Shown here: one piece after another, positions 6,149 through 45,960 of the stretch
Layout of the letters: every line of letters starts with the position of its first letter
Position numbering within the stretch: the stretch's first letter is position 1
Source: an uncultured Candidatus Saccharibacteria bacterium
GTDB lineage: Bacteria; Patescibacteriota; Minisyncoccia; UBA6257; JAUSGH01
Direction: 5' to 3'
Assembly (NCBI GenBank): GCA_964372325.1
Contig: CAYJQG010000003.1
Location: 1-46,294 of the forward strand
DNA: 46,294 nt
Translations under genes and position numbers: made by a program
The notes under the pieces: model-generated
Told to the model about the DNA's origin: nothing
The model's input: the letters and a program-made list of their open reading frames with translations, nothing else
Databases searched by the model: none

Positions 6149-6188
6149 CCTGCCTATCGGCAGGCAGGCCTGTCTGCCGATAGGCAGG
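6149..6188. repeat. Two abutting 20-nt CCTGCC palindrome units forming a 40-nt palindrome
   Basis: CCTGCCTATCGGCAGGCAGG (6149-6168) and CCTGTCTGCCGATAGGCAGG (6169-6188) are reverse complements of each other with one mismatch. Confidence 0.9.
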
Positions 6189-12070: not shown

Positions 12071-12120
12071 AAAGAGTTACTAAACAAGTTGACGGTCGTC
12101 AACTTGTTTAGTAACTCTTT
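12071..12120. repeat. Long palindrome P1 (24-bp arms, 2-nt centre)
   Basis: AAAGAGTTACTAAACAAGTTGACG-GT-CGTCAACTTGTTTAGTAACTCTTT. It overlaps the tsaD stop by 2 nt and is nearly identical to P2 at 44016. Confidence 0.95.
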
Positions 12121-15938: not shown

Positions 15939-15974
15939 CCCTCCTATCGGTGGGCAGGCCTGCCGGCGGGCAGG
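15939..15974. repeat. Degenerate double CCTGCC palindrome unit
   Basis: CCTCCTATCGGTGGGCAGG followed by CCTGCCGGCGGGCAGG. Confidence 0.7.
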
Positions 15975-16044
15975 TAGGGCTGCGCAGGTTGGCTGCGAAA
16001 TGACGGGCTGGCTTTAGCTCTAACAGATTTGCTTAATCTTTTTT

Positions 16045-20809: not shown

Positions 20810-20914
20810 AGCCGAGTGGCGGAATGGCAGACCTGTCTGACGGCAGGCAGGCGCGGCAGTTTCAAGAACTGCTGCCTAAGGGCCACGAGGGTTCAACTCC
20901 CTCCCCGGCTACCA
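20810..20914 (+). tRNA. tRNA-Leu(CAA) interrupted in the D-loop by a 20-nt palindrome
   Basis: Without 20832-20851 it is an 85-nt class II tRNA. The fold is AGCCGAG TG GCG-GAATGGCAGA-CGC G GCAGT-TTCAAGA-ACTGC, variable arm TGCCTAAGGGCCAC, T-arm GAGGG-TTCAACT-CCCTC, then CCCGGCT A CCA. There is one A-C mismatch in the acceptor stem. Confidence 0.75.
20832..20851. repeat. CCTGCC-family palindrome unit inside tRNA-Leu
   Basis: CCTGTCTG-ACGG-CAGGCAGG, an 8-bp stem including one G-T pair, with a 4-nt loop. Confidence 0.9.
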
Positions 20915-21006: not shown

Positions 21007-21084
21007 GGCCGGGTGGCGAAACTGGCAAACGCGGCGTATTTAAAATGCGTGCAACTGAGGGTTCGAATCCCTCCCCGGCTACCA
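21007..21084 (+). tRNA. tRNA-Leu(UAA)-like with truncated variable region
   Basis: GGCCGGG TG GCG-AAACTGGCAAA-CGC G GCGTA-TTTAAAA-TGCGT GCAACT GAGGG-TTCGAAT-CCCTC CCCGGCT A CCA. The D-arm and 3' half are Leu-type, but the variable loop is only 6 nt and the anticodon stem has two G-U pairs. Confidence 0.5.
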
Positions 21085-21154: not shown

Positions 21155-21232
21155 GGCGCCGTGGCCGAGGATGGTTCAGGCAGCGGTTTGCAAAACCGCT
21201 CACGGCGTGTCCACTCACGCCCGGCGTCTCCA
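21155..21232 (+). tRNA. tRNA-Cys(GCA)-like, atypical
   Basis: GGCGCCG TG GCC-GAGGATGGTTCA-GGC A GCGGT-TTGCAAA-ACCGC TCAC GGCGT-GTCCACTC-ACGCC CGGCGTC T CCA. U73 and GCA fit Cys identity. The D-arm looks class II-like and the T-loop lacks the TTC consensus. Confidence 0.45.
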
Positions 21233-21252
21233 CTTTCAGATTTCTGATCTCT

Positions 21253-21280
21253 GACCCCTACGGGGGTCTTTTCTATTTTC
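21253..21280 (+). terminator. Intrinsic terminator after the tRNA cluster
   Basis: GACCCC-TACG-GGGGTC, followed by TTTTCTATTTTC. Confidence 0.75.
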
Positions 21281-21479: not shown

Positions 21480-21507
21480 TTGACAGATTTTGGTGGTCTG
21501 CTATAAT
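21480..21507 (+). promoter_or_regulatory. Near-consensus sigma70 promoter
   Basis: TTGACA (21480-21485), a 16-nt spacer, then TATAAT (21502-21507). Confidence 0.55.
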
Positions 21508-21543
21508 GAGTAGCGATGTGATAGATGGCTTGTTGCAAAGGGC

Positions 21544-21571
21544 TTGACAGAATTAATAGGTATGGTATAAT
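21544..21571 (+). promoter_or_regulatory. Second near-consensus sigma70 promoter
   Basis: TTGACA (21544-21549), a 16-nt spacer, then TATAAT (21566-21571). It lies 64 nt downstream of the first. Confidence 0.55.
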
Positions 21572-21893: not shown

Positions 21894-22595
21894 ATGAACT
21901 CCCGTTTGAACTCCCGTTTGAACTCCCGTTTCGTCACGCTCAATGCGGGCCTTATCGAGAAGCTCGAAGCCGCTCACGCGGCCTTCGACAAGGCCCACAA
22001 GCCCGACCCCGCGCTCCGCGCGGAGGTAACGGCCGAGATCGCGGCGCGGCCGCATCTCGTGAGCGTCGAACCGCTGGGCAATACCACGCGCGGCGTGGTT
22101 GCCCAGCGGGCTCTGGTGCAGGGCCTCGCAGACCTCGTGTCCGCGGGAGTCTGCCGGTCGGGGATCCTGATCGAGCTCGCAAACTCGATCGGGGAGGCTC
22201 CGGCCGACCCGAAGCGGGACAAGCTGTGGGTCCTCCGCAAGGAGGGGCCCGCGGCCCAGCGGCGCTTTGCGCTGCTGGCCGAAGCCGGCGGGGGCACCCC
22301 CGTCGAGGCCCATCAGCGCCTCCAGGCGTTGGTGGCCGCTGGCGCGGTGGCTGGAGCTTCGCTCCAGGTCCGCTGTGCCGCGGCGTCTGCGAAGACGCTT
22401 GCGGCGAAGTTCGCCAAGGCGTTCGAGCGGGAGCTTTCCCGCCCGGCGCCGGCGGCGGCTTCGGCCCGCCCCCACGCGGCGGTGACGAACGTCGGGGCGG
22501 AGGTGGAAAGGGCCCTGGCAGGGGCCAAATCCACCACTCCCGCCGCCCCCGCTCCGGCCGCGCCCGCGGTCGGAAAAGGGAGGGGGGGCAAGTAG
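21894..22595 (+). CDS. 233-aa Ala-rich protein of unknown function, high-GC cassette 3
   Basis: GAGGTGG lies 4 nt before ATG 21894. It is the only frame in the GC-rich block with protein-like composition. The overlapping 216-345-aa ORFs on both strands are Arg/Pro/Gly junk. It begins with three 12-nt tandem repeats (21897-21932, NSRL NSRL NSRF). Confidence 0.6.
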   Translation: MNSRLNSRLNSRFVTLNAGLIEKLEAAHAAFDKAHKPDPALRAEVTAEIAARPHLVSVEPLGNTTRGVVAQRALVQGLADLVSAGVCRSGILIELANSIGEAPADPKRDKLWVLRKEGPAAQRRFALLAEAGGGTPVEAHQRLQALVAAGAVAGASLQVRCAAASAKTLAAKFAKAFERELSRPAPAAASARPHAAVTNVGAEVERALAGAKSTTPAAPAPAAPAVGKGRGGK

Positions 22596-23109: not shown

Positions 23110-23444
23110 GTAACCCCTCACGCTACGTATGCCTCGACTCATGACTTTAGGGGAGCCCACCTTGCGAAGGATATGTTTCCCGAACGGATATCGCTTCTCA
23201 AAAACAGAATAATTTTACTCCGGTAAAATTTCCTTCTCTCTCGGTCCCATCTTATTAAAACATAGGTTATTGACGGACGGGACCTCCGAGATGTTTCTCG
23301 AAACGATATCCGTTCGGGAAACATTCGTTATTGCACCTGCCTGCCGGCAGATAGGCTTGGCTTCGGAACCCAGTCTCCCTCAAAGTTATGAGCCGAGAGC
23401 ATACTTATATTACTCAGTTATTATTGGATAGCGTGAGGGGTTAC
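23110..23444. mobile_element. MITE family X, copy 2 (335 nt), carrying nested inserts
   Basis: It has the same ends as 20114..20282, in the same orientation. It contains a 152-nt inner element with perfect 21-bp inverted repeats (23173-23193 and 23304-23324) and a CCTGCC unit at 23336-23356. Confidence 0.8.
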
Positions 23445-24849: not shown

Positions 24850-27800
24850 TTAATCGTATTCAATAAAATCTTCGTCTTCGAAGCTTTCGAGTTTGCGTTT
24901 TGCTGGTGTATGGTTTTTAAACATGGTGAGCTCGGCGGGGATTTCGTACAAAAAACGCGATGGAGTTTCGTGGAATGTAAGCGTGAGCTCGAGACGTGCA
25001 CGAGTCATTGCTACATACATTAGCCGTCGCTCTTCTTCGAGCGCGCCATCTTCGCCGATAGAGCGGCCGTGGGGCAGCAACCCTTCACTGCAACCCGCAA
25101 CAAACACTTGGTTAAACTCCAAGCCTTTGGCTGCATGGATCGTCATGAGGTGTACGACACCTCCGGCCAGGCGCTTCGCACGAACAGCGGTGCGGCCGTT
25201 GGGCATTTCGAGTGAAGAGACGAGGCTGACTTGTTCGAGAAACTCAGTTAATCCGGCTGATGGAAGAGGTTGCTTCGTACCCATCGACTCGCTCGGGGTT
25301 CCCTGCCTGCCGGCAGGCAGGCCTGCCCGACGGTTAGGCGGGCTCGCAATGACGACCTCAGGAACTGTGTTCGTCATAAGACCCAAGTGGTTAAACGTCC
25401 CAGCAAACATAATGAGCTCGTTAATATTTTCAATACGCTCTTCTCCATTTTTCTGCTTTTCCATTGCCGCGATATAGTCAGTACTTTCTAAAAAGAAATT
25501 GATGAGATCCAATAATTTCTCTGTTTTTGCACGCTCGGGCAATTCAGATGCAAGCATCGCCATTTCTTTTTTCCCAAAATTCTTTTCCAATCGTTCGAGT
25601 GCCATACTGTTCTTTGGGTTGGCTGCATATTGGAGTGCCGCAATAATATCTTTAATCTCCATACGGTCGTAAAAACGCAGCCCTCCATAAATGCGGTAGG
25701 GGATGCTGTTTTGAAGTAGGGCTTGTTCTATGGCACGCGACTGTGCGTTGGTGCGATAAAGGACTGCGATGTTTGGTTCGGCGTTCTGCGACTCGAGTAA
25801 CGCAAGAATTCTCCCGGCAACAAAATAACTCTCACCGCTTTCGTCTTTAAAGCCATGAATTTCGACAACATTCCCATTCTTGTTTTTCGTCCACAATGTT
25901 TTCGGTTTCTGAACGATGTTGTGACGGATCACCGCGCTCGATGCACCAATGATGTTCCCGGTTGAACGATAATTCTCTTCAAGCTTTATAACCGTTGCCC
26001 CCTCCCAATCGCGCTCGAAATTTAAAAAATTTCTAAAATCTGAGCCTCGAAACGCATAAATGGAGTTATGTACCACAATGCCGTTAGCGATATAATTATG
26101 TACATGTTCCACGTCGAGGTCGTAGACCAAACCGTTATACTCTTCGATAACCACTCGCTCAATGTCATCTTCCACAATAGACTCTTGTTCATAAATTGCG
26201 GTAGCCATTGTAACACGCGCATGAGAGGCTGGCTGAAAAAATAAACGTTTTTTTGTTGTAAGACACGCACTGCGCACAATTTCTATCTCGGCATTTACAC
26301 GCTGTAAGCTTTTCGCTATTTTTTCAATTTCTTTATACCGCAGGCGTACAATCTCCATGCGCCAATCATGCAACTTACCCTTTCGTGTTTTGAACCCCAA
26401 CTTCTCGATTTCCTTTTTTAATAACTCATCTTTCGTATTCACGCTTATTCTACTCATCCCCCAAGGATTCACTATACTTTTTCGCTTGTCGTCGAATAAT
26501 GCAACGCGTATGCGCAAACGCCGTGATGTATGACGGATCGTCCCTTGAGGGATCCAATGGGGGTACGCAAAATATAAGAGTTCCTCCTTAAATAATTTTT
26601 GTGCTCGTTCTTTCGTATCAATTACCGTGAACAGTCGATCCACGCTTTGCTGACTAAGCTTCATATTCCGATTATTGGTATCAAATACTACCGTTGGTAT
26701 CCCATATTGAAATGCGTAAAGAAACTCATAGTATTCTGCCTTGCCCCTATCGGTACACACGCGTAGCACCCACATCTTGTCTGCTTTTTCTTGATTATTT
26801 CGCACAACAAGGCCGATCTGCTTTTTTCCTCTTGGGCCCCACCGCGCTCCTTTTGCGATACCAATGCGGAACCCTTTATCTTTGCGATACATAAGATATA
26901 CAAAATAAATATCGCGCACCAATTGTAGCCGAGTAAAGATGAGATGGTTTGGCGTCAAGGTAATTTCTTTGCCTGTTTTCGTCGTTATCTTGATGAGCTT
27001 CCCGTTATATTTTCGTTTATAAATTTTCAGTACTTTTGCCTCGCAAACTTCGCCGTTACCCCCAGCTGAACATATTGTCTCTCCTCGTTTTATCTCTTTT
27101 ATCATTTTCTGCCCCCGTTTTGTCGCAATGAATGTCTCGGGAAGAACACACTGTGCGTCGTCCCCAACAACGCTCAAATTCTTATGTATTCCGGCCAAAC
27201 ACTTAATAAGTGCATACTGCGCACTATTGGTGTCTTGATATTCGTCGACTAAGATATGGTCGTACCGCGCCTGCCACTGTTGCAGCACGTCGGGGTACCC
27301 AATAAATATTCGTACTGGCTTTTCGATAAGGTCATCGAAGTCGAACGCGTTATTTTCTTGAAGGGCAGTTTCATAGCTTTCATAAACTCTTGAGACGAGT
27401 TGGTCGAGGAAGTTTGGGGAGTGAGGACCAGCATAATATGGATCCCGGACCGAAGACGACGTTGATCCCAGCTCAGAGGCTGGGATGACAACGCTTTGAT
27501 GTCCCGCTAACTCATTTTTAATTTTCCCGATACGCGCACGAAACATTGCGGGGTTGTAGCGCTCTTTGTCTATTCCCATATTTTTTACGATACCCTTTAA
27601 GAGGCGTAGCGCGTCGTCGTCGTCGAAGATAGAAAAATTTCTCGTACGACCGATGCGGTGACCTTCGAGTTTCAAAAAACGAGCTCCCCAAGAGTGGAAG
27701 GTTCCTACGAATGGCATATCGCCGGTTGCTAATCGCGGGTCCTGCCTGCCGACGGGCAGGTCGGTGGTCGCGGGTCGCAGATTGTGGGTCGCAGACTGTG

Positions 27801-28053
27801 GGGTTTCTTCGCTTACTAACGATTTGCGATTCGCAATAAGCGCCCTGCTGACACGCTCTTTCATCTCCTGCGCTGCCTTGTTGGTAAACGTAATGGCAAG
27901 AATACGGTCGGGTAACACTCCGCGCTCTAGGAGATGCACAATGCGACTTGTAAGCGTCTTGGTTTTGCCCGACCCCGCGCCAGCGACGATAAGTAACGGC
28001 CCACCAGCGTGGTCGACTGCTTGCTGTTGAGGGGGGTTGAGTTGAGCGTCCAT
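24850..28053 (-). CDS. uvrD: UvrD/PcrA-type DNA helicase, intein-containing precursor
   Basis: LNPPQQQAVDHAGGPLLIVAGAGSGKT, TFHSWGARFL, VDEYQDTN, VVGDDAQ / SIYAFRGSD (motif III, split by the intein), TIHAAKGLEF and YVAMTRAR. Confidence 0.92.
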   Translation of the reverse strand: MDAQLNPPQQQAVDHAGGPLLIVAGAGSGKTKTLTSRIVHLLERGVLPDRILAITFTNKAAQEMKERVSRALIANRKSLVSEETPQSATHNLRPATTDLPVGRQDPRLATGDMPFVGTFHSWGARFLKLEGHRIGRTRNFSIFDDDDALRLLKGIVKNMGIDKERYNPAMFRARIGKIKNELAGHQSVVIPASELGSTSSSVRDPYYAGPHSPNFLDQLVSRVYESYETALQENNAFDFDDLIEKPVRIFIGYPDVLQQWQARYDHILVDEYQDTNSAQYALIKCLAGIHKNLSVVGDDAQCVLPETFIATKRGQKMIKEIKRGETICSAGGNGEVCEAKVLKIYKRKYNGKLIKITTKTGKEITLTPNHLIFTRLQLVRDIYFVYLMYRKDKGFRIGIAKGARWGPRGKKQIGLVVRNNQEKADKMWVLRVCTDRGKAEYYEFLYAFQYGIPTVVFDTNNRNMKLSQQSVDRLFTVIDTKERAQKLFKEELLYFAYPHWIPQGTIRHTSRRLRIRVALFDDKRKSIVNPWGMSRISVNTKDELLKKEIEKLGFKTRKGKLHDWRMEIVRLRYKEIEKIAKSLQRVNAEIEIVRSACLTTKKRLFFQPASHARVTMATAIYEQESIVEDDIERVVIEEYNGLVYDLDVEHVHNYIANGIVVHNSIYAFRGSDFRNFLNFERDWEGATVIKLEENYRSTGNIIGASSAVIRHNIVQKPKTLWTKNKNGNVVEIHGFKDESGESYFVAGRILALLESQNAEPNIAVLYRTNAQSRAIEQALLQNSIPYRIYGGLRFYDRMEIKDIIAALQYAANPKNSMALERLEKNFGKKEMAMLASELPERAKTEKLLDLINFFLESTDYIAAMEKQKNGEERIENINELIMFAGTFNHLGLMTNTVPEVVIASPPNRRAGLPAGRQGTPSESMGTKQPLPSAGLTEFLEQVSLVSSLEMPNGRTAVRAKRLAGGVVHLMTIHAAKGLEFNQVFVAGCSEGLLPHGRSIGEDGALEEERRLMYVAMTRARLELTLTFHETPSRFLYEIPAELTMFKNHTPAKRKLESFEDEDFIEYD
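26065..27150 (-). mobile_element. Intein (362 aa) in helicase motif III
   Basis: It starts at Cys302 (TGT, 27148-27150), right after GDDAQ. Block B is LTPNHLIFT. It ends at VVHN663 and is followed by Ser (+1) of SIYAFRG. About 250 central residues are unassigned and could be a homing-endonuclease-like domain. Confidence 0.85.
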
Positions 28054-29170: not shown

Positions 29171-29533
29171 ATGATCAAAAATTTTTATGATCTCAGGGTG
29201 TGGCAAGACGCACATCAACTTACGCTTGATGTGTATCGTATTACTAAAAAATATCCAAGCGAAGAACGCTTTGGCTTAACTGCACAAATGCGCAGCTCGG
29301 CTGCTTCGACACCCGCGAATATTGCAGAGGGCTTTGGAAGATTTCATTACAAAGATAAGGTCCGGTTTTATTTACAAGCACGTGCTTCTGCGGTCGAACT
29401 GCAGAACCATTTAATCCTCTCGCAAGATCTTGAATATATCTCTAAAGAATCCGCGCGTATATTATTCAGCAAGGCAAGTCTGGTGATAAAAGAATTAAAT
29501 GGGCTTATCCGTAAAACCGGTCCTAGTGCCTAG
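29171..29533 (+). CDS. Four-helix-bundle protein (23S rRNA intervening-sequence protein / Avd-like family)
   Basis: FYDLRVWQDAHQLTLDVYRITKKYPSEERFGLTAQMRSSAASTPANIAEGFGR is the characteristic N-terminal pattern of this family. Confidence 0.8.
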   Translation: MIKNFYDLRVWQDAHQLTLDVYRITKKYPSEERFGLTAQMRSSAASTPANIAEGFGRFHYKDKVRFYLQARASAVELQNHLILSQDLEYISKESARILFSKASLVIKELNGLIRKTGPSA

Positions 29534-29554: not shown

Positions 29555-30427
29555 ATGCGTCAACCGCTTGGTCAACATTTTTTAAAGAATACCGGCGTTA
29601 TTACGCAAATTATCGATGCGCTAGATTTGCGTACCGGTGAAACGGTGGTTGAAATTGGGCCAGGGGAGGGGGCGCTCACATTTCCGCTTGCGGAGCGATG
29701 CGCGAAGTTCGATTGCAAACTTATTGCGATTGAAAAAGATGAAGCGTTAGTTAAGAAATTACGAAATTGGAAAATTAAGAAATTAATTGGAGATGTCACC
29801 ATCATGCACGGCGATGCACTCGAAGAAATTCCTAAGCTCTTCACGTCATGGCAAATACACCGTGGATCCCTGCCTGCCGGTAGGCATGGCCAGATTGAAC
29901 CTCAGATGACGGATATTAAAATTGTTGGCAACATCCCTTACTACATCACCGGAAAACTGCTACGCACCATCAGCGAGCTCGAGCACAAACCTAAATGTAC
30001 CGTGCTTATGGTGCAACGCGAGGTGGCCGAACGCATTGTAACAAAGCCACCGCACATGAACTTGCTCGCCGCAGCAACACAAATTTGGGCAGATGCAGAA
30101 ATTATTGCACTACTTAAACAAAAAGATTTTGACCCGCCGCCAGAAGTAGAGTCGGCGGTTGTACGACTGCTAAGCGCTAAGCGCTTAGCGCCATGCCTAC
30201 CGGCAGGCAGGCTTAGCGCTGATAAGCTCGCGCATTATTATTCGTTTATCCACGTCGCGTTTAAACAACCAAGAAAAACATTGCTGAATAATTTATGCGG
30301 GGGCTTCGATATATCTAAGTCGCAGATCATCGATACGCTGAAGGGGAGTGGGTGGAACGAAAAAACTCGGGGGCAAGAGTTAGGCATCGCACAGCTACTC
30401 AACCTCACAAATAAATTTTTTAACTAG
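29555..30427 (+). CDS. rsmA: 16S rRNA (adenine1518/1519-N6)-dimethyltransferase RsmA/KsgA
   Basis: GQHFLKN, VVEIGPGEGALT (SAM motif), VGNIPYYITG and PPPEVESAVVRL. ATG 29555 was chosen. Two palindrome-unit insertions are present. Confidence 0.9.
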   Translation: MRQPLGQHFLKNTGVITQIIDALDLRTGETVVEIGPGEGALTFPLAERCAKFDCKLIAIEKDEALVKKLRNWKIKKLIGDVTIMHGDALEEIPKLFTSWQIHRGSLPAGRHGQIEPQMTDIKIVGNIPYYITGKLLRTISELEHKPKCTVLMVQREVAERIVTKPPHMNLLAAATQIWADAEIIALLKQKDFDPPPEVESAVVRLLSAKRLAPCLPAGRLSADKLAHYYSFIHVAFKQPRKTLLNNLCGGFDISKSQIIDTLKGSGWNEKTRGQELGIAQLLNLTNKFFN

Positions 30428-30443
30428 TGGTCAACCTACGACC

Positions 30444-30674
30444 GTGGGTCCCGCATCGCGGTGCGGGATGCTCAATTTTCCAACCACTCGCTTCGCTCGT
30501 ATTTGTGGATCCCAGCCCGAGAGCTGGGATCTATTAAGTCTAAAACTACGTGGATCCTGGATTGTTATCCAGGACGCTCAATTTTCCAACCACTCGCTTC
30601 GCTCGTGGGGAAAAACCATGGGTCCCGCATCGCGGTGCGGGACGCTCAATTTTCCAACCACTCGCTTCGCTCGT
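30444..30674. repeat. Array of hairpin modules sharing a 31-nt tail (three copies)
   Basis: GCTCAATTTTCCAACCACTCGCTTCGCTCGT occurs at 30470-30500, 30576-30606 and 30644-30674. Each copy is preceded by a GC-rich hairpin (TCCCGCA..TGCGGGA twice, TCCTGGA..TCCAGGA once). An extra hairpin lies at 30508-30531. Confidence 0.85.
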
Positions 30675-36569: not shown

Positions 36570-37049
36570 ATGCAGTACCAAGTACCACAATTTATTGAGG
36601 TTGAAGACACCATTGTTGGGCCGTTAACGATTAAGCAGTTTATTTATCTTGCAACGTCGGGTTTTATTTGTGTTATTTTGTATTTTATTCTCCAAGGAGC
36701 TGTATTTTTTATTGTCGCCGCACTTGTCGGTGGCAGTGGGCTGACACTCGCATTCGCAAAGTATAACGGGCGCCCCGTTACTACGGTGCTTGTTGCCGCC
36801 TTTCGTTATTTTTTAAACCCTCGTATCTATATATGGAAGCGCAAAGAAGAGGTTGCAGCGCTCCGCGCAGCTGAAGCAGAGAAACATGAGTCCGCCGTTC
36901 AACAGTTGTGGCTCCGCATTACCGCGGGAAAAGATATCGTGCCCCAGCGCCCGAAAGAGCGTTCGGCATTTGGGGTCCCGCAAAAATACCAAGTGATTGA
37001 GCATGTGTCGGGGGCGAGAGAGAACGTGAAGAGGATTGATTATAGGTAA
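36570..37049 (+). CDS. PrgI-family (VirB3-like) T4SS membrane protein
   Basis: MQYQVPQFIEVEDTIVGPLTIKQFIYL followed by two TM helices is the hallmark PrgI-family N-terminus. It lies immediately upstream of the VirB4-like genes, as in Gram-positive conjugation operons. Confidence 0.75.
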   Translation: MQYQVPQFIEVEDTIVGPLTIKQFIYLATSGFICVILYFILQGAVFFIVAALVGGSGLTLAFAKYNGRPVTTVLVAAFRYFLNPRIYIWKRKEEVAALRAAEAEKHESAVQQLWLRITAGKDIVPQRPKERSAFGVPQKYQVIEHVSGARENVKRIDYR

Positions 37050-37324
37050 AATGCACTAATGAGCGCCCGCTTTGTCGCCCTTCGTCGGAGTACCACAGAG
37101 AGTACACCTCCTCAGGGCTTCGCGCGGGCATCTCATTATTGCATTTTACTCGCGCCATGAAGTACGTTACCGGGCCGATTTCGTTGTCGTGCCTCCTCGC
37201 AGTACCACCGCGGGTACAGCTTCGTCGGCACTCCTAGAACTCGGCCCGGTAACGTACTTCTACCACTTACCGAGAGCTCTAAGGGCTTCGCGCGGGCATC
37301 TCATTATTGCATTTTACTCGCGCC
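37050..37324. mobile_element. Composite GC-rich MITE-like insert
   Basis: A 43-nt direct repeat, AGGGCTTCGCGCGGGCATCTCATTATTGCATTTTACTCGCGCC, occurs at 37114-37156 and 37282-37324. A perfect 20-bp inverted repeat is GAAGTACGTTACCGGGCCGA (37159-37178) with 37241-37260. It shares modules with 6127-6148 and 15100-15128. Confidence 0.8.
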
Positions 37325-37386
37325 GTCATTATTATTCTTTTTCCTTTTTCCTTTTTCATTCTTCGTTTTTAATTTATACTACATAC

Positions 37387-38040
37387 ATGCCTCCCATAGC
37401 TCGGCCAACGCAAGAATTTGTCGCAATTGACCGCATCCAAGACGGTGTGGTGATTTTAAAAGACGGAGCTCTCCGGCAAATTTTACTTGTTTCGGGCACC
37501 AACTTCGACCTAAAGTCCGAAGACGAAAAACAGCTTATCATCGCATCGTACCAAAACTTTTTGAACTCGCTCAAATTTTCTTTACAAATGATCGTGCACT
37601 CTCGCCGCGTGAATGTCGAACGCTATTTAGCCCGCCTTGGAGAACGCTCGCTTACCGAAACCAATGAGCTCTTGCGTAACCAAATCGCTGAATACAGCCA
37701 ATTTATTCGTTCGTTTGTCGGAGAAAACCCCATTATGACTAAAACTTTTTTCGCCGTTGTTCCATTTGATCCCGTTTCTATTCCCGGTGCCGCGGCCATA
37801 ACGCGCACTGGTCTTTTTGGGTTTTTCAAAAAGTCCGCACCCGAAGCCGCTACAGCCGACGCCACACGTACCCTACACGACCACATTGAACAGCTCTCGC
37901 AACGTACCACCCACATTATTTCAGGGCTTCAAGAAATCGGGCTCCGTGCGGTGCCGTTGCAAGACCAAGAAATTACTGAGCTACTCTACAACCTCTACAA
38001 CCCAGAGCCAGTAGAGAAAACGAGCGTTGCTGAGAAATAA
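37387..38040 (+). CDS. VirB4 N-terminal-domain-like protein (217 aa, no NTPase motifs)
   Basis: ATG 37387. The ORF-track extension to 37072 reads through the MITE. The pattern TQEFVAIDRIQDGVVILKDGALRQILLVSGTNFDLKSEDEKQ..YQNFLNSL resembles the N-terminal region of conjugative VirB4/TraC-type ATPases. Assigned by eye only. Confidence 0.5.
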   Translation: MPPIARPTQEFVAIDRIQDGVVILKDGALRQILLVSGTNFDLKSEDEKQLIIASYQNFLNSLKFSLQMIVHSRRVNVERYLARLGERSLTETNELLRNQIAEYSQFIRSFVGENPIMTKTFFAVVPFDPVSIPGAAAITRTGLFGFFKKSAPEAATADATRTLHDHIEQLSQRTTHIISGLQEIGLRAVPLQDQEITELLYNLYNPEPVEKTSVAEK

Positions 38041-38047
38041 AAACTTT

Positions 38048-39757
38048 ATGCCAGAAAATAATAACATCGAAAATTTTATTGCACCACCAAGTGTTGAGGT
38101 GAATGCCAATTATTTAAAAATCGGCAATGAATTTGCGAAGACGCTCTTCATTTACACCTACCCACGCTACCTTTCGACGGGTTGGTTTTCACCAATCATT
38201 AACATGCCGAGCCTCTTAGACATTGCTATTTTTGTGCACCCCGTTGACCCAGCGCTTGCCTTGAAAAATTTGCGTAAAAAGTCTGCGCAAATTGAGTCGC
38301 AAATCATGTCGGTTGAAGAAAAGGGGCTGGTTAGAAACCCCCTCCTTGAAACCGCCTACCAAGACGTCGAAACATTGCGCGATTCACTCCAGCAGTCACG
38401 AGAAAATCTTTTTAATGTTGCCGTGTATATTACGATATTCGCTGACTCTCTCCCGAACCTTGGGAAACTTGAGTCAGAGATCACGAGTTTTCTCGAAGGG
38501 CGCATTGTGTATGCGAAGCCTGCCGCATTCCAACAAGTTGAAGGGTGGACCGCAACGCTCCCCTTAGGGCTCGACAAGTTGCTTATTACCTCGCCCATGG
38601 ACACGGCGCCGATTTCTTCGTTCTTCCCATTTGTTTCTGCAAACCTCACCTCCGAAACCGGAATTTTGTATGGCGTGAACCCGGGCAATAACACCCTTAT
38701 CCTTTTCGACCGATTCTCACTCGAAAATGCGAACATGGTCATTTTTGCCAAGTCTGGTTCTGGTAAGTCGTACGCTACCAAACTCGAAGCGCTCCGCCTC
38801 TTAATGCTTGGGACTGATGTGATTATTATCGACCCTGAAAATGAATATCAAAATTTGGCAAACACGGTCGGTGGAAGTTTTATTAAAATTTCACTCGCCT
38901 CCGAGCAACATATTAACCCATTTGACATCCCTATTATTCCCAAAGGCGAAGACCCGAGCGACATCTTAAAGTCCCATATTGCCGGGCTCGCAGGCATGAT
39001 GAAAATTATGTTGGGGAAAATTTCTCCCGAAGAAGATGCGCTCCTCGACCGGGCGCTGCTCGAAGCGTATGCATCGCGCGACATTGCACCCGGCAAAGAA
39101 TTTGCAAATGCCATCCCGCCCCTTTTAGAAGATATCGAAACTGTGCTCCGCGGTATTGAGGGTGGGGGGCCGCTTGCCGAACGATTGTTTAAATTTACTA
39201 AGGGCAGCTACGCCGGTTTTCTCGACAAACCAACCAACGTCAGCGTACAGAACCGCCTCGTAGTTTTTTCGGTACGCGATCTTGAAGAAGAACTGCGCCC
39301 TATCGCGGTTTACCTCGTCTTAAACTTTATTTGGAATATTATTCGGGCAGAGATTAAGCAACGTATTTTAATTGTCGATGAAGCCTGGTGGATGATGAAA
39401 AACCCCGACAGCGCCCAATTTTTGTTTAGCCTTGTGAAGCGCGCTCGCAAATATTACCTTGGTATAACCACCGTTACCCAAGACGTTGAAGATTTTTTGC
39501 TTTCGCCGTATGGCCGGCCTATTATCACCAACTCCTCGCTCCAACTTTTATTAAAACAAGCTCCTGCGATGATGGACATTGTTTCGAAAACTTTCGCACT
39601 TGCCGAGGGAGAAAAAACTTTGCTCACCGAAGTCCCCGTAGGGCAGGGTATTTTCATCGCTGGCCTTCAACACGCACCAATCCAAATTGTTGCGTCGTAT
39701 CTCGAAGACCAGATTGTGACAACAAAGCCGCAACAGATATTGGAGGAACAACAATAG
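38048..39757 (+). CDS. virB4: VirB4/TrbE/PrgJ-like T4SS ATPase
   Basis: Walker A FAKSGSGKSYATK, Walker B ILIVDEAWWMM, the YLKIGNEFAKTLFIYTYPRYL N-domain and TQDVEDF. The start is ATG 38048, or TTG 38027 overlapping the upstream stop. Confidence 0.85.
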   Translation: MPENNNIENFIAPPSVEVNANYLKIGNEFAKTLFIYTYPRYLSTGWFSPIINMPSLLDIAIFVHPVDPALALKNLRKKSAQIESQIMSVEEKGLVRNPLLETAYQDVETLRDSLQQSRENLFNVAVYITIFADSLPNLGKLESEITSFLEGRIVYAKPAAFQQVEGWTATLPLGLDKLLITSPMDTAPISSFFPFVSANLTSETGILYGVNPGNNTLILFDRFSLENANMVIFAKSGSGKSYATKLEALRLLMLGTDVIIIDPENEYQNLANTVGGSFIKISLASEQHINPFDIPIIPKGEDPSDILKSHIAGLAGMMKIMLGKISPEEDALLDRALLEAYASRDIAPGKEFANAIPPLLEDIETVLRGIEGGGPLAERLFKFTKGSYAGFLDKPTNVSVQNRLVVFSVRDLEEELRPIAVYLVLNFIWNIIRAEIKQRILIVDEAWWMMKNPDSAQFLFSLVKRARKYYLGITTVTQDVEDFLLSPYGRPIITNSSLQLLLKQAPAMMDIVSKTFALAEGEKTLLTEVPVGQGIFIAGLQHAPIQIVASYLEDQIVTTKPQQILEEQQ

Positions 39758-39769
39758 CAGGGTTTTAAG

Positions 39770-40025
39770 AAAATCCCAAGCACTAAATAACAAATAAATT
39801 CTAATTTTTTTATTCGAATCTATATATTAGACCCACTGCTTAATTATCTTTCTACTGCAATTCTAAAATCATGGCTACAACTTGTCAAAAAAAGTTCACA
39901 AGATACACTGTATATTGCTCACTTTTTTTGACTGCGTTTCGCTCACGATTTTAGAATTTCGTAACGAAAATAATTAAGCAGCGGGTCTATTGAATATTAT
40001 TTGGGATTTGGGATTTGGTGCTTAT
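39770..40025. repeat. CCCAAAT-hairpin element, copy D, with a nested 160-nt insert
   Basis: The arms are at 39770-39810 and 39993-40025. The nested element has ends AGACCCACTGCTTAATTAT (39829-39847) and ATAATTAAGCAGCGGGTCT (39970-39988), plus an inner inverted repeat. Confidence 0.8.
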
Positions 40026-40061
40026 GTTTTTAGTGGCTATTAGCTATACCCTTAATTTTTT

Positions 40062-40541
40062 ATGCCTCCTCTAACTAATCTATTAAACAACGCCCCACAA
40101 AAACCACCCATAAAGGTATCTACTGCCGAGATGGTACTCGTACTTACCATCTCGGGCATGATCGACGCCCTTGACGCCGCTCTTAGTTTTATCCCAGGGC
40201 TTGGCTGGATCTCCAACTTCTTCATCAACCTTATGGCAACCGCCTTGATTCAGCTGTACCTCATGCTCCGTGGCTTAAAATGGTATTATAGTATTGTAGG
40301 CAACCTAATAGAATTTATACCGGTTTTGAATATATTGCCGCTTCGTACGGTTGGCCTTGCGCTAACCTTTGCGCTTACCCAATCAACATACTCCACCGCT
40401 GCCGCAAGAATTATTCGCTCGCGCTCGGGAGGTGCAATGTTGAGAAAGGTTACTTCTCGCGTCAATCCCGAAGAGGCGGCTGCAGCCTTACAATATATAT
40501 CTTCGACCACCGCAGCGAAGACACCACCGGAGGACGGTTAG
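40062..40541 (+). CDS. Small polytopic membrane protein (159 aa)
   Basis: ATG 40062. Three to four hydrophobic helices and a basic, Ala-rich C-terminus. No motif recognised. Confidence 0.65.
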   Translation: MPPLTNLLNNAPQKPPIKVSTAEMVLVLTISGMIDALDAALSFIPGLGWISNFFINLMATALIQLYLMLRGLKWYYSIVGNLIEFIPVLNILPLRTVGLALTFALTQSTYSTAAARIIRSRSGGAMLRKVTSRVNPEEAAAALQYISSTTAAKTPPEDG

Positions 40542-40661
40542 CCCTAGTGCGTAATTCCTAATATCTAATATCTAATTTCTAATTTCTAATAAAATGACTA
40601 AGCAATAAATGATAAAAAAAATCTAAACTTTATTCATTAGATATTAGAAATTTTCTCATCA

Positions 40662-41345
40662 ATGTTTCTCGGGTTTGTAAAAATTCTCTCGCTGGTCTAT
40701 GCACTCTTCGCCACACAGGCTGCTTTTGCGCAAGCTGCTCCTTTTGAATTTGTGACCTCTTGGCGAGCACATAGCTATGCGCCACCAATGTACGTGGGGA
40801 AAATTCTCCCCACCGCAAATACGAGAGTAACCGCGAGCTTCACACTGCTTGAAAAACATGCCTCAGTCGACACGTCAAAAACTATGGTACGTTGGTTTTT
40901 AAACGACCAATTTCTTACATCTGGGATAGGCGCACAATCGGTAACGTTTACGACCGACGACCTTACCTTGTCTGGGGCGCTTACACTTAAAGTTTTTATC
41001 CCTCGCTTCCGTGGGAAAGAAGACTTAATTAGGTTTATCGATATTCCCATCGTAAGGCCGGAGTTGGTTATCCGCGCGCCGTATATTGGCGGTAATATTA
41101 ACGCTGGGAACCATACATTCGAAGCATTGCCGTATTTTTGGAACATCAATTCCACGAGTGATTTACTTATTCGGTGGGTGGCGGGGAACGACCAAAGCCC
41201 TGAGGGCAGAGGCCAAGGGGCAATTACCCTTACCATTCCGCAGCCAAGGAGACCCACGCCGCTCACTATTTCACTCTCTGCAAAACATGCAACCAACGAA
41301 TTTGAAGTTGGGAGCGCGAGCGTGGAACTTTTAATTGCGGAATAA
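40662..41345 (+). CDS. Secreted protein (227 aa)
   Basis: Signal peptide MFLGFVKILSLVYALFATQAAFAQA, followed by beta-rich composition. Confidence 0.7.
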   Translation: MFLGFVKILSLVYALFATQAAFAQAAPFEFVTSWRAHSYAPPMYVGKILPTANTRVTASFTLLEKHASVDTSKTMVRWFLNDQFLTSGIGAQSVTFTTDDLTLSGALTLKVFIPRFRGKEDLIRFIDIPIVRPELVIRAPYIGGNINAGNHTFEALPYFWNINSTSDLLIRWVAGNDQSPEGRGQGAITLTIPQPRRPTPLTISLSAKHATNEFEVGSASVELLIAE

Positions 41346-41356
41346 TATATAAAGAC

Positions 41357-41457
41357 TAAGCACTAAATCCCAAGCATCAAATAACAAATAAATCTTAATT
41401 GAGTGGTTTCCATGATTAGAATTTAAGAGTTGAATATTATTTGGGATTTGGCGCTTA
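41357..41457. repeat. CCCAAAT-hairpin element, copy E
   Basis: TAAGCACTAAATCCCAAGCATCAAATAACAAATAAATC paired with TTATTTGGGATTTGGCGCTTA. Confidence 0.8.
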
Positions 41458-41497
41458 ACCTTATATCCTTATAAATAATGAGAGTTATACTATAATT

Positions 41498-42748
41498 ATG
41501 TCTTCTTTGTTTCTATTATCTACGCCTGTCGCCAATGCTGCTCCCGCTGCTGCTCCTGCAGCCAATGCTGCACCAACGGAGGCTCCCTCTACCCGCAAAG
41601 TTCTTGATTGTGGGCCACAACCTGGCGGCGAATATAAACTTTGCGTTACGCTCCCTGGCCAGCCCGGTGAGGGAGTTGTTACTGGGCCGATACAATACCT
41701 ATCGGTCGTTTACAACAGCGCGCTCACACTAATCGCGATAGCGGTGGTTGGGATTATTATGTATCGCGGTATTTTGTATATCTTGGCACGCGGCAACCCC
41801 GCAGAACAAACCGATGCGCGCGACGCCATCACCAAAGCAGTGCTCGGGCTTGTGCTCGGCCTTTCGGCGGTTTTAATTCTCCGCACTATCAACCCGGCTC
41901 TTATAGACAATGTGCGCGAACTCCCGGTGCCACAAATCCCCAAACAAGAAAACTCTGTTCTAAATGCACTGATAGCCGAACAAAATAGAAGCTCTCTGGC
42001 TTTAGAGAATTTAAAAAAAGAAATGACTAGGCTCGACCGGATTGTCCAGGATACCCCTAAAGAGCTTCAAGAAAAGGCAAGAAATGCTGCTCATGGTAGG
42101 ACATTTGATGATTTATTGGCTCAGGAAAAGCAACAAGTAGAAAAATCGTTTAAGCTTATCACTGGAAGCACCGCAGAGCAACGAACTAGCGCCGCATTGA
42201 ATCAAATGAAACCATTGTGGCAGCAGTATTTTACCGAACTTGAAAAGACCAATCACTTACTATCAACTCTTTCCAGCTTAAAAGAGGCGGGGGGGAAGAG
42301 CCGTGAAGCAAATCAATTTGAATTTTTAATAACGTATGACCTTAATACTAATAAAGGGGCTGAGCTTGTTCAACAGATACCAGACGACGAACTTAAAACA
42401 TTATTCCGCAAGTCATCAAGCGTTCCGTACCCCAATGTCGATGCTAATTCTTTCTGGCTTGGCACAAAGGCTGCCTTTATAAATCTTTTTAATCTCCCGG
42501 CAGTTGGGACGACAGACAAAGATCTTTCCCCTATACTGGGGCAGTGGATGTCTGAACAACAGGCGGAAAATTTATTTATGGCGTATTTTAGAGAAGGGGC
42601 TGAAGCCACTCAAAACCTCACAAACGTAGCTCAAATACAAACAACAGCGAAAAACCAGATGGACCTTCTACTTCAATATAAGCCAAACCTCCGCAAAAAC
42701 ATAGCGGTGATTCAAAGGCTCAATGCAAGCGATTCTTGGAGGAAGTAA
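41498..42748 (+). CDS. T4SS-pilin-like (TrbC/VirB2-type hairpin) protein with a long helical C-terminal extension
   Basis: It has a signal peptide, a Cys pair (CGPQPGGEYKLC), and two hydrophobic helices (LTLIAIAVVGIIMY and AVLGLVLGLSAVLIL) separated by the charged loop RGNPAEQTDARD. The C-terminal ~270 aa are heptad-like. Confidence 0.55.
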   Translation: MSSLFLLSTPVANAAPAAAPAANAAPTEAPSTRKVLDCGPQPGGEYKLCVTLPGQPGEGVVTGPIQYLSVVYNSALTLIAIAVVGIIMYRGILYILARGNPAEQTDARDAITKAVLGLVLGLSAVLILRTINPALIDNVRELPVPQIPKQENSVLNALIAEQNRSSLALENLKKEMTRLDRIVQDTPKELQEKARNAAHGRTFDDLLAQEKQQVEKSFKLITGSTAEQRTSAALNQMKPLWQQYFTELEKTNHLLSTLSSLKEAGGKSREANQFEFLITYDLNTNKGAELVQQIPDDELKTLFRKSSSVPYPNVDANSFWLGTKAAFINLFNLPAVGTTDKDLSPILGQWMSEQQAENLFMAYFREGAEATQNLTNVAQIQTTAKNQMDLLLQYKPNLRKNIAVIQRLNASDSWRK

Positions 42749-42776
42749 CCTTGCCTTATAAAACATACAATCGATT

Positions 42777-43973
42777 ATGCGCTTAACTAAAATTTTCCTT
42801 GTTATAGTCACTGCTCTCTCTCTGGTCTCTCTAGGCTATTTTATCTACGTCTCGTTTTTTAAGCCCGCGCCGACACCCACGACACAAGCCCCTTCGATTA
42901 CTAAACAACTTAAAGCAGTTGGTACCCCAAAAAAGAAAAACCTTGTTGTACTAACAAAGCAATCTGCGTCTGCGTATTGGACGGCCACTACGACAAATAC
43001 GCTCTACTATGTAGCAAACGATGGGCGAGTGCTTAAAACTTTTGGCGACGGCAGAGAAGAAGAGGTGAGCAGCCAAACATTACCAAACTTTTATGCAGCG
43101 ACCTCAAATGCATCGGGCGCTCTTGCGTTGGGCACGTTTAGCTACCCCATATCTCCCGTGTTTGCCATGTTTAGCACCGACACCAATGCCTGGGAACGCT
43201 TACCAGCAGGAACTATCGCAGCGGCATTTAGCCCCGACGGCAACGCGATCGCCTATATCCAAGATGGGCCGAGGCAGGGGTCGGGGAGTGATGCAACGGG
43301 ACTCTCTGGAACACTGTCGGTGCTCCAAGTTGGCGATAAAAAATCGAGGGTGATTGGCCGCATTACTATTGCCGACGGCACACTGCAGTGGCCGAAGTCC
43401 AACACGATGTACATCACCACCCGCCCGTCTTCAGAAATTTCGGCTGAGGTTTGGGAATTGCGTCTCTTGAATAATAAAAAAGGCGCGCCACTTGCGCCCA
43501 AAGACATTGCATCGTTTACCATACAACGTGTTGACGTCGATACCCGCACCACCATGGTACTCCACGGCAACATTGCTGACGTTGGTCTCCAGTTAATTAG
43601 TAAAGATGCGGCTACCTCGGAACTATACCTCACTAATAGAGCTGGGGTTACACTCACGAAGCTCCCATTCCTCACCCTGCCCTCGAAGTGCACATTCGAC
43701 GATGTAGTGCTATATTGTGCGTTGCCCAACACATTCCCCACACGCGCACGCTTGCCTGAAGACTACTCCCAAGAACGCTTTTACACCGCCGATGCACTTA
43801 TTTCGTACGACACCACAACTGGTTCGGCGCGAGTGCTCTATGAGAGTGGCGCTGTTATTGACGCCGAACAACTCACCGTACGCGATGGTGGTTCGACGTC
43901 GCTCACCACGAGCAAAGAACTATTATTTAGAAATCGATACGATGGAAAACTGTATTCGCTGCAGCTTGACTAG
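42777..43973 (+). CDS. Membrane-anchored beta-propeller-like protein
   Basis: N-terminal TM helix, then repeated Ser/Thr/Gly-rich beta segments including a TolB-like FSPDGNAIAY motif. Confidence 0.6.
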   Translation: MRLTKIFLVIVTALSLVSLGYFIYVSFFKPAPTPTTQAPSITKQLKAVGTPKKKNLVVLTKQSASAYWTATTTNTLYYVANDGRVLKTFGDGREEEVSSQTLPNFYAATSNASGALALGTFSYPISPVFAMFSTDTNAWERLPAGTIAAAFSPDGNAIAYIQDGPRQGSGSDATGLSGTLSVLQVGDKKSRVIGRITIADGTLQWPKSNTMYITTRPSSEISAEVWELRLLNNKKGAPLAPKDIASFTIQRVDVDTRTTMVLHGNIADVGLQLISKDAATSELYLTNRAGVTLTKLPFLTLPSKCTFDDVVLYCALPNTFPTRARLPEDYSQERFYTADALISYDTTTGSARVLYESGAVIDAEQLTVRDGGSTSLTTSKELLFRNRYDGKLYSLQLD

Positions 43974-44015: not shown

Positions 44016-44057
44016 AATTTACTAAACAAGTTGACGATCGTCAACTTGTTTAGTAAA
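44016..44057. repeat. Long perfect palindrome P2 (42 nt)
   Basis: ATTTACTAAACAAGTTGACGA|TCGTCAACTTGTTTAGTAAAT. It shares 19 of 20 arm positions with P1. Confidence 0.95.
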
Positions 44058-44719: not shown

Positions 44720-44736
44720 TTAACGGTTCCATAATA

Positions 44737-45426: not shown

Positions 45427-45610
45427 AATTAATTAGGGATTAGGCACTAGGCACTAGTAATTATTAAATTTCTAATATCTCATTGCTCGTACTTTATAGA
45501 ATTTCTAATTCCAAATATCTAATTTCTAATAAAACCTTGCAGTGTCTAATGTTTTTAAGAATCAACTATTAAACATTAGACATTTTAATATTTGCTTATT
45601 TTATTAAGAA

Positions 45611-45946: not shown

Positions 45947-45960
45947 AATCGATAATTTCT

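Follow-up and report, generated by a model that had tools for sequence, protein, structure and literature searches.

A 20-bp palindrome that recurs at loop/stem junctions of tRNA genes interrupts a tRNA-Leu(CAA) gene in a Candidatus Saccharibacteria contig

Contig CAYJQG010000003.1 of an uncultured Candidatus Saccharibacteria bacterium carries, at positions 20810-20914 of the forward strand, a tRNA-Leu(CAA) gene that is interrupted by a 20-nt palindrome, here called PAL. The window that was analysed is this one entire 46,294-bp contig, and statements on the gene content of the host cover these 46 kb. PAL is a very small palindromic element that is found across lineages, prefers the loop/stem junctions of tRNA genes, and is linked to tRNA-associated cassettes that encode small GIY-YIG proteins. 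The family and its targeting of tRNA genes appear to be undescribed; neither the 20-mer nor its 16-nt core was found in any paper of the searchable literature, and a literature search for such elements in these bacteria returned nothing relevant. The interrupted gene of the window is itself probably ordinary, in the sense that it is a casualty of the element.

The tRNA-Leu(CAA) gene belongs to class II, measures 105 nt with the insert and 85 nt without it, and encodes its own CCA. From 20810 to 20914 it reads AGCCGAG-TG-GCG-GAATGGCAGA-[CCTGTCTGACGGCAGGCAGG]-CGC-G-GCAGT-TTCAAGA-ACTGC-TGCCTAAGGGCCAC-GAGGG-TTCAACT-CCCTC-CCCGGCT-A-CCA. The acceptor strands are AGCCGAG and CCCGGCT, and the D-arm (GCG-GAATGGCAGA-[CCTGTCTGACGGCAGGCAGG]-CGC) holds PAL between the last base of the D-loop and the 3' strand of the D-stem. 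The anticodon arm, GCAGT-TTCAAGA-ACTGC, has a 7-nt loop with CAA and U33 and is followed by a 14-nt variable arm (TGCCTAAGGGCCAC), a T-arm (GAGGG-TTCAACT-CCCTC), A73, and the encoded CCA. The leucine hallmarks are thus all legible in the gene: CAA, U33, a long variable arm, A73, a 3-bp D-stem, and GG in the D-loop. There are two departures from a regular tRNA. The D-arm is neither continuous nor of normal length, as the 20-nt hairpin stands between its loop and the 3' strand of its stem, and the acceptor stem forms six of its seven pairs. The lost pair is an A6·C67 mismatch in the restored stem, where the adjacent tRNA-Leu(TAA) gene has G6-C67.

When left intact, the stretch 20810-20914 gives no ARAGORN call and no Rfam match with default filters. 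With permissive filters, the Rfam tRNA model (RF00005) aligns to 20810-20911 at 37.7 bits, against a gathering score of 29, and takes up the insert as a 23-nt insertion state in the D-loop. ARAGORN calls an 85-nt tRNA-Leu(caa) once 18 to 24 nt around 20832-20851 are deleted, and removal of exactly 20 nt rebuilds the tRNA with no surplus bases. The PAL copy at 20832-20851 (CCTGTCTGACGGCAGGCAGG) has two differences from the family consensus CCTGCCTGCCGGCAGGCAGG, namely a C5>T change that turns one pair of the RNA hairpin into G·U and a C9>A change within the loop. The insert RNA is predicted to fold into an 8-bp hairpin with one G·U pair and an ACGG loop, and in the predicted fold this hairpin does not invade the other helices of the tRNA. 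A promoter-like site lies upstream of the tRNA cluster and a terminator-like hairpin lies downstream.

Much of this had been anticipated by an earlier note made from the letters of the window alone. The note had read 20810-20914 as a tRNA-Leu(CAA) gene with a 20-nt palindromic hairpin at 20832-20851 whose deletion would give an 85-nt class II tRNA, and running ARAGORN with and without the insert, as it had suggested, bore this out, together with the Rfam match to the uncut stretch. Its description of the leucine D-arm, the CAA anticodon arm, the 14-nt variable arm, the T-arm, A73, and CCA agrees with our reading of the sequence; the acceptor mismatch had been overlooked. The note had also placed the insert in a palindrome family that sits inside uvrD and rsmA, and each of these genes does hold two copies within 4 mismatches of the consensus. 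Finally, it had judged the insert to be unlike a group I intron, which was upheld. Group I introns in bacterial tRNA genes have a ribozyme core of more than about 200 nt and sit in the anticodon loop; the insert is 20 nt long, lies at the D-loop/D-stem junction, and matched no Rfam intron family.

The PAL consensus is a perfect 20-bp palindrome without a head sequence. The 46-kb contig contains ten distinct copies within 4 mismatches of it, and six distinct sites within 3 mismatches of the tRNA copy where 0.00 are expected from 100 shuffles. Half of the ten copies are internal to genes, two in uvrD, two in rsmA, and one in the tRNA gene. All four of the copies in protein genes are translated in frame, and the corresponding short insertions are absent from the orthologues of L004, one of the loci of our comparison collection (handles beginning with L). 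The uvrD copy at 25302-25321 matches the consensus exactly, reads LPAGRQ, and lies within a 10-residue insertion missing from the L004 orthologue, while the copy at 27741-27760 reads LPVGRQ and lies within an insertion of about 33 residues that is likewise missing there. In rsmA, the copy at 29869-29888 reads LPAGRH, and the one at 30192-30211 is nested in another palindromic repeat (GCGCTAAGCGCTTAGCGC). PAL therefore sits where orthologous genes have none, which is the signature of an inserting element, with selection sparing only the in-frame copies in proteins. The other copies comprise two in tandem at 6149-6188, intergenic and 41 nt past the 3' end of tRNA-Arg(GCG); a degenerate intergenic copy just downstream of recG (15955-15978); a copy at 23336-23355 in a variable segment that is absent from relatives; and an intergenic 40-nt hairpin adjoining rnpA (45960-45999) with a PAL-like 16-mer at its tip (CCTGCCTGCCGGCAGG). 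PAL is also present in the relatives L001, L004, and L006. A miniature inverted-repeat transposable element (MITE) was considered and rejected, as PAL consists entirely of one 20-bp palindrome with no internal segment and the window copies have no consistent target-site duplication or other flanking duplication.

At least three more families of short palindromic repeats occur in the window: CAAGTTGACGRTCGTCAACTTG (12085-12106 and 44027-44048), (G)TCCCGCATCGCGGTGCGGGA(C) (30449-30468 and 30622-30643), and ATCCCAGC...GCTGGGAT (27465-27486 and 30509-30530). One copy of these further families lies inside uvrD. From its sequence, the genome appears to be rich in small hairpin repeats.

The earlier note had treated the interrupted gene as a one-off oddity. 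It is instead one instance of a widespread phenomenon with preferred sites. JGI metagenome contigs were scanned for a degenerate PAL followed 9 to 39 nt downstream by the T-loop motif GGTTCRANTCC, a pattern that sees insertions at about positions 12 to 42 only and that does not draw a random sample of genomes. PAL was found inside tRNA sequence in at least 120 metagenome stretches, with at least 129 matches; nearly all of the matches listed are tRNA sequence, and they come from many projects. The counts given from here on for tRNA-embedded PAL and for GIY-YIG open reading frames (ORFs) are among these matches listed. The contigs range from 30 to 68% GC with a median of 41%, and the exact consensus is kept in 79 of 110 unique tRNA-embedded copies. 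When PAL is cut out in silico, ARAGORN calls a tRNA in 52 cases, one of them the window gene, with specificities for Arg, Lys, Ile, Val, Asn, Met, Leu, Glu, Ala, Trp, and Ser.

These 52 restorable genes carry 54 insertions that cluster mainly at loop/stem junctions. The D-loop/D-stem junction is the commonest site, with 16 insertions at position 21/22 and 8 more at the equivalent junction of class II tRNA-Leu, which is the site used in the window (the window gene is among the 8). Position 35/36 also has 8, positions 31/32 and 38/39 have 5 each, and position 23/24 has 3. The very motif of the window, GGCAGA|PAL|CGCG, recurs in tRNA-Leu of L023, L052, L060, L083, L108, L110, and L127, and is found in tRNA-Leu genes with TAG, CAG, and TAA anticodons.

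PAL is confined neither to tRNA nor to Patescibacteria. The exact 20-mer was found in 35 IMG/VR stretches of 38 to 68% GC, mostly in other repeat contexts, and only 3 of 70 IMG/VR copies are in tRNA-like sequence. The same 20-mer is thus common to very different genomes. In L163:3916-4125, PAL lies within a tandem array of ten 21-nt units (CATGCCTACCGGCAGGCAGGC), and in other high-GC IMG/VR contigs (among L130, L153, L159, and L150) it is flanked by GTGAGAGG repeats or forms the core of a longer inverted element.

The empty site in sister genomes that the earlier note had hoped for was not found. Scans of genome contigs gave nothing related, their only match being an unrelated tRNA-Leu in L009, and a metagenome scan for the D-arm of the window gene, filled or empty, found nothing. 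BLAST of the restored tRNA against all comparison loci gave a short match to the T-arm and acceptor of the L009 gene and no orthologue, and L001, L004, and L006 have no tRNA-Leu at the corresponding place.

The condition of the PAL-bearing genes elsewhere provides insight into the fate of the one in the window. An uninterrupted tRNA with the same anticodon is present on the same locus for 35 of the 52, typically 90 to 450 nt away and most often just upstream. Full 7/7 acceptor pairing is seen in 14 of 45 unique PAL-tRNAs versus 164 of 171 uninterrupted tRNAs of the same loci (Fisher p = 4e-20). About 80 of the at least 129 matches could not be restored, their 5' part being degenerate or missing; only a D-loop stub remains upstream of PAL, and the 3' part is pristine and sometimes identical to that of the neighbour. 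Among the tRNA-Leu genes with PAL at the site used in the window (n = 12), only those of L023, L108, and L110 have a perfect acceptor stem. Some insertions lie inside a CAT anticodon or at the edges of the anticodon loop, and therefore no working tRNA could carry them. The cost of PAL in the Rfam tRNA model is about 11 bits, as judged from twin genes of L110 that are otherwise identical and stand 700 nt apart (57.2 bits PAL-free, 45.8 with PAL). At 37.7 bits, the window copy is the lowest of the PAL-tRNAs scored, below those of L023 (45.5), L021 (42.9), and L108 (41.4).

Because PAL-tRNAs elsewhere are mostly redundant and damaged, and because the window copy has an acceptor mismatch, an inactivated gene is the reading we favour. 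It is fairly likely that the tRNA-Leu(CAA) gene was disabled by the insertion, or was already dispensable when PAL arrived, and that its decay has begun with A6·C67. The surroundings are consistent with decay, since the segment that holds the gene also has a tRNA-Leu(TAA) whose variable arm is truncated, a Cys-like tRNA whose T-loop is aberrant, and a GC-rich ORF that is probably foreign. The earlier note had left three explanations standing: a tRNA that functions with an extra helix, removal of the insert by some activity, or a freshly inactivated gene. The comparative evidence favours the third, and the first two are unlikely. The word "freshly" is doubtful, as the insert is already two positions away from the family consensus.

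In the course of events that we propose, a single PAL would have entered the tRNA-Leu(CAA) gene where the D-loop meets the 3' strand of the D-stem. PAL would settle between genes, inside protein genes if the reading frame is kept, and with a preference at tRNA loop/stem junctions, and it presumably moves at the DNA level with the aid of an enzyme encoded elsewhere. The clustering at junctions may reflect a preference for certain targets, such as the hairpins that a tRNA gene can form when its DNA is single-stranded. A preference of this kind would explain the clustering better than selection for tolerable sites, as most PAL-tRNAs look dead and hence are unselected. The gene would then no longer yield a working tRNA, leaving UUG codons to the adjacent tRNA-Leu(UAA) or to a further tRNA-Leu(CAA) encoded outside the contig. 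Wobble reading of UUG by tRNA-Leu(UAA) follows established decoding rules.

Several observations weigh against inactivation. No intact tRNA-Leu(CAA) is present in the 46-kb contig, so that the second copy envisaged by the earlier note was not seen within these limits. TTG makes up 16.6% of the leucine codons in 13 window genes and UUG must therefore be read by some tRNA, yet the sole other UUR reader in view, tRNA-Leu(TAA), is atypical. Apart from the D-arm and the one acceptor pair, the stems, the anticodon loop, A73, and the encoded CCA are all intact. The cluster ends in a terminator, and so the gene is, on its sequence, probably still transcribed. All 8 pairs of the hairpin are kept at the RNA level through the G·U pair. 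Intact PAL-tRNAs with no twin on their locus are found in L023 (in a six-tRNA array), L108, L021, and the array shared by L013, L057, and L096, and the sample on which the comparison rests was picked by an exact-match sequence pattern rather than drawn at random from genomes. Sense-strand transitions in tRNA-embedded PALs are wobble-preserving rather than disruptive by 22 to 6, which is compatible with constraint on the RNA and equally so with mutation bias or a directional subfamily. We do not count this asymmetry as evidence of RNA-level selection on the hairpin, because subfamily inheritance or a transcription-linked C>T bias of the non-template strand gives the same excess.

A functional tRNA, whether the hairpin is tolerated or removed, is in our view unlikely for the window gene, and it is slightly less likely still that the intact twinless PAL-tRNAs as a group (window, L023, L108, and L021) yield working tRNAs, with the GC-rich hairpin borne as a fifth arm or lost by PAL-specific excision. 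If the hairpin is retained, the 8-bp PAL helix would form a fifth arm at the D-loop/D-stem junction of a tRNA that is processed, charged by leucyl-tRNA synthetase, and used. The cloverleaf is otherwise intact with an Rfam score above the gathering score, and the insert is a closed, stable module whose pairing survives through G·U and which is predicted to leave the folding of the tRNA stems undisturbed. Structurally perfect tRNA-Leu genes of L023, L108, and L110 carry PAL at this very site, and no second tRNA-Leu(CAA) is in view in the 46-kb contig. Set against this, the insertion parts A21 from the D-stem, and this region belongs to the core of the tRNA. The L110 gene is accompanied by an identical twin that lacks PAL, redundancy and damage are the rule among PAL-tRNAs, PAL also enters anticodon loops where its retention cannot be functional, and the window copy has its A6·C67 mismatch. 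We therefore regard a retained and working hairpin as quite improbable.

Some of the PAL-bearing loci merit separate description. In L010 (5214-5340) and L058 (4763-4900), a tRNA-Arg(TCT) gene carries two PALs, at 21/22 and 38/39, in a cloverleaf that is otherwise perfect. The two loci come from different metagenomes and differ in sequence, and both have an intact tRNA-Arg(TCT) twin about 350 nt downstream, past a GIY-YIG ORF. L013, L057, and L096 share an array of 13 tRNAs with unique anticodons (for example, L057:91-1390), in which PAL lies in tRNA-Ile(GAT), in the middle of the D-loop, and in tRNA-Ser(GCT), in the T-arm region; both genes have perfect acceptor stems. This array, which may be phage-borne, also has a 74-nt class I-like tRNA-Leu(CAG).

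Alternatively, the hairpin may be removed from the transcript, either by an endonuclease and a ligase as a new kind of bacterial tRNA intron, or by an RNase III-like cut that leaves a two-piece tRNA held together by base pairing. Such removal would agree with the high conservation of the insert across different tRNAs and genomes, as sequence-specific recognition would produce, although recent or ongoing transposition explains this equally well. The insertions abut a stem on which the hairpin could stack. A few genes with PAL at 38/39 are otherwise perfect, among them the tRNA-Arg(TCT) genes with two PALs in L010 and L058, but both of those loci have the intact copy downstream. There is no bulge-helix-bulge motif, and a Pfam scan of the window ORFs found no splicing endonuclease or RNA ligase among the window genes. 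PAL is clearly not removed from mRNAs, because the frames of uvrD and rsmA require it, and the acceptor-stem decay of most PAL copies would not be expected of spliced, functional genes. Taken with these points, removal from the transcript is very unlikely. The bulge-helix-bulge motif consists of two 3-nt bulges with a 4-bp helix between them at the exon-intron junctions. An intron of this class was rejected for the window gene, as both junctions lie at the base of a perfect, uninterrupted 8-bp helix and the 3' part of the insert offers no complement to the exon bases that precede the 5' junction.

A frequent companion of tRNA-embedded PAL is a small GIY-YIG ORF of about 75 to 95 residues (PF01541, 61-65 bits), which is present in 50 of 130 sequences (129 loci and the window). 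It lies within 600 nt of 25 of the 52 PAL-tRNAs, on the same strand every time, and 30 of the 56 small GIY-YIG ORFs have PAL 12 to 90 nt upstream. The recurrent layout is a 5' part of a tRNA, PAL, and a few more tRNA bases before truncation, followed by the GIY-YIG ORF and then by an intact tRNA of the same anticodon. Often this is followed by a degenerate 5' part, PAL, and an intact 3' part. Loci with this module, in which the ORF has about 75 residues, are L010, L024, L039, L046, L058, L060, L077, L087, L106, L107, L110, L115, and L120, with examples at L107:6560-7180 and L024:9760-10360. The layout suggests a nuclease cassette that targets tRNA genes and restores the gene it has entered. 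It is possible that small nuclease cassettes insert into tRNA genes, bringing a partial tRNA copy that rebuilds the gene, and that the leftover tRNA copies later gather PALs. This would follow from a preference of PAL for tRNA-shaped targets, with insertions surviving only where the tRNA copy is dispensable.

The association raises the question of whether the window PAL is a scar of a larger tRNA-targeting cassette, composed of a small GIY-YIG gene and a partial tRNA copy, that had earlier filled the site, rather than a free-standing 20-mer insertion. The frequency of PAL upstream of GIY-YIG ORFs, the nearness of these ORFs to PAL-tRNAs, and the recurrent layout at other loci all speak for a scar. 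No GIY-YIG ORF or remnant of one is found anywhere in the window, and the window PAL is therefore a solo copy. Exact removal of 20 nt restores the tRNA with no extra bases, and solo PALs are common in contexts other than tRNA. We consider that there is only a slim chance that the window insert is such a scar. Slimmer by far, to the point of being negligible, is the chance that the 20 nt are an assembly or sequencing artefact and absent from the real genome. Palindromes can arise from chimeric reads, but many independent assemblies, made in different projects, have this element at the identical tRNA position, diverged copies are in frame inside conserved proteins, and the tRNA copy is itself two positions off the consensus.

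The small GIY-YIG nucleases are candidates for the enzyme that mobilises PAL, as is a Y1/HUH transposase like the RAYT-like one encoded at 124-795 on the reverse strand of the window (PF01797 54.9 bits; NF047646 64.9 bits, below its cut-off of 80). Inverted copies of a repeat of its own, GGTGTCAGGTACC followed by a T run (64-76, 104-116, and 848-860), stand on both sides of the RAYT-like gene in an arrangement of the REP/RAYT type that is separate from PAL, and the PAL nearest to the gene is at 6149. Only 2 of 165 PAL-bearing sequences examined have a RAYT-like gene, the window and one other locus. The RAYT-like gene, with another repeat at its flanks and no association with PAL in other loci, was rejected as the obvious mobiliser of PAL; its transposase may act on PAL in trans.

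Several known systems resemble PAL in part. Repetitive extragenic palindromic (REP) sequences and REPINs with their RAYT are likewise short palindromes that form hairpins, recur in high numbers, and have their movement ascribed to an enzyme encoded elsewhere in the genome, and a RAYT-like gene is present in the window. REPs are imperfect palindromes that are overwhelmingly extragenic and flank their RAYT gene (PMC3116915). In contrast, PAL is a perfect palindrome without a conserved 5' head, 5 of its 10 window copies are inside genes, and the RAYT-like gene is flanked by GGTGTCAGGTACC rather than by PAL. Closer in their choice of targets are the Rickettsia palindromic elements (RPEs), reportedly described by Ogata and colleagues in 2000 as selfish DNA inside protein-coding genes. 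RPEs are about 100 to 150 bp long and restricted to Rickettsia. They share with PAL the in-frame palindromic insertion into conserved proteins and the absence from orthologues, as seen here for uvrD and rsmA against L004, and differ from it in that PAL is 20 bp long, has a Patescibacteria host, and occurs in backgrounds of 30 to 68% GC. We know of no description of a preference for tRNA loop/stem junctions in RPEs.

Small dispersed repeats (SDRs) of the Nostocaceae, said by Elhai and colleagues in 2008 to be "very small mobile repeated elements", are alike by description only: 20 to 27 nt, mobile-looking, some palindromic, nested, and with no obvious target-site duplication. To our knowledge, neither a preference for tRNA junctions nor an association with nuclease cassettes has been reported for them. 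They belong to another phylum and probably differ in sequence. SDRs of the Nostocaceae are mentioned in the REP literature (PMC3116915). The GC clusters of fungal mitochondria are also short, GC-rich palindromes that spread through an AT-richer genome into genes and spacers, but PAL is one exact 20-mer common to unrelated genomes. Fungal mitochondrial GC-rich palindromic clusters are organellar, longer, and heterogeneous in sequence.

From the side of the tRNA, the non-canonical archaeal introns of the D-, T-, and variable regions resemble the window case as interruptions of tens of nt outside position 37/38. Those introns are cut by EndA at a bulge-helix-bulge, whereas PAL has no such motif, its host is a bacterium, and most of its copies look dead. 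T4 SegB is a free-standing GIY-YIG homing endonuclease encoded in a tRNA gene cluster. Endonucleases of the Seg type offer a likeness to the related loci, not to the window, in that small GIY-YIG genes stand among tRNA genes and the neighbouring tRNA sequence is duplicated or converted. A link to a fixed 20-bp palindrome is no known feature of Seg, and homing at the PAL loci is putative. In mechanism PAL is akin to REP/REPINs, RPEs, SDRs, and mitochondrial GC clusters, all of them small palindromic DNAs that proliferate and may lie within genes. Because the defining features of the REP/RAYT, MITE, group I, and bulge-helix-bulge classes were each looked for and were absent, we place PAL outside all four.

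tRNA finders silently miss genes interrupted by PAL, and this element may account in part for tRNAs that seem to be missing from candidate-phyla-radiation genomes, or for surplus pseudo-tRNAs in them. PAL would rank among the smallest mobile or proliferating elements known and would drive the turnover of tRNA genes in minimal genomes. If the hairpin were tolerated or excised, it would represent a new bacterial tRNA architecture or processing route; PAL-specific excision in particular would establish a new class of intervening sequence in bacterial tRNAs, one defined by its sequence and disseminated by a mobile 20-bp palindrome.

By its sequence, the host is a candidate-phyla-radiation bacterium without a close sequenced relative. 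RecG of the window is at most 73% identical to any protein in the collection, with named relatives labelled "Patescibacteria group", "Candidatus Paceibacterota", and "Parcubacteria", and an exact-protein look-up of the window ORFs found no record. The groundwater metagenome contigs L001, L004, and L006 are syntenic with the window, having recG, tsaD, valS, uvrD, and rsmA in common. ORFs of the window between about 18.6 and 23.5 kb have no protein match in these three relatives, which also have no tRNA-Leu near recG, and this region reads as a lineage-specific segment. It contains orphan ORFs, three tRNA-like genes, a terminator-like hairpin, and the GC-rich ORF. A 139-residue ORF adjoining the tRNA cluster has no homologue beyond itself. 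A phage origin of the neighbouring ORFs was rejected, as there was a single weak PHROG match (E = 0.002, to a family of unknown function) and nothing further.

The second gene of the cluster, tRNA-Leu(TAA) at 21007-21084 on the forward strand, is called by ARAGORN and scores 54.6 bits with Rfam. Its D-arm, T-arm, and acceptor resemble those of the interrupted gene, and its variable loop has only about 6 nt, as in class I. At 78 nt it is an outlier in length, most of the 48 tRNA-Leu called in the comparison loci being 83 to 87 nt. From these features it could be either a second damaged leucine gene or an unusual class I tRNA-Leu, and it is a candidate reader of UUG besides UUA. The third gene, at 21155-21233 on the forward strand, is tRNA-like with a GCA (Cys) anticodon, U73, CCA, a class II-like D-arm, and a non-canonical T-loop (GGCGTG-TCCACT-CACGCC). 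It is missed by ARAGORN and by the tRNA model, and its only match is to the tRNA-Sec model at 27.1 bits, below the gathering score of 47. An intrinsic-terminator-like hairpin (21246-21268) with a T tract ends the cluster of three at 21246-21278 on the forward strand.

Just beyond it, 21480-21571 on the forward strand contains two perfect sigma-70 consensus promoters (TTGACA-16-TATAAT with TG). Downstream of these promoters, within a block of 56% GC, lies an orphan ORF at 21894-22595 (forward strand) that is about 65% GC and rich in Ala and Pro. This stretch is probably recently acquired foreign DNA adjoining the tRNA cluster. Further along, uvrD (24850-28053, reverse strand) carries an intein, with Intein_splicing and Hint matches at about residues 300 to 663, that is present in L001 and absent from the L004 orthologue. 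Between an M23 peptidase gene and rsmA, a gene for a 23S rRNA-intervening sequence protein (29171-29533, forward strand; PF05635, 117 bits) has no gene called at the matching position in L004. A type IV secretion-like cluster at 36570-43973 on the forward strand includes a PrgI-family protein, a TraG/VirB4-like ATPase, and a T4SS pilin domain. It is followed at 44276-45946, on the reverse strand, by a jag(R3H)-yidC-rnpA group, which is usually located near the replication origin.

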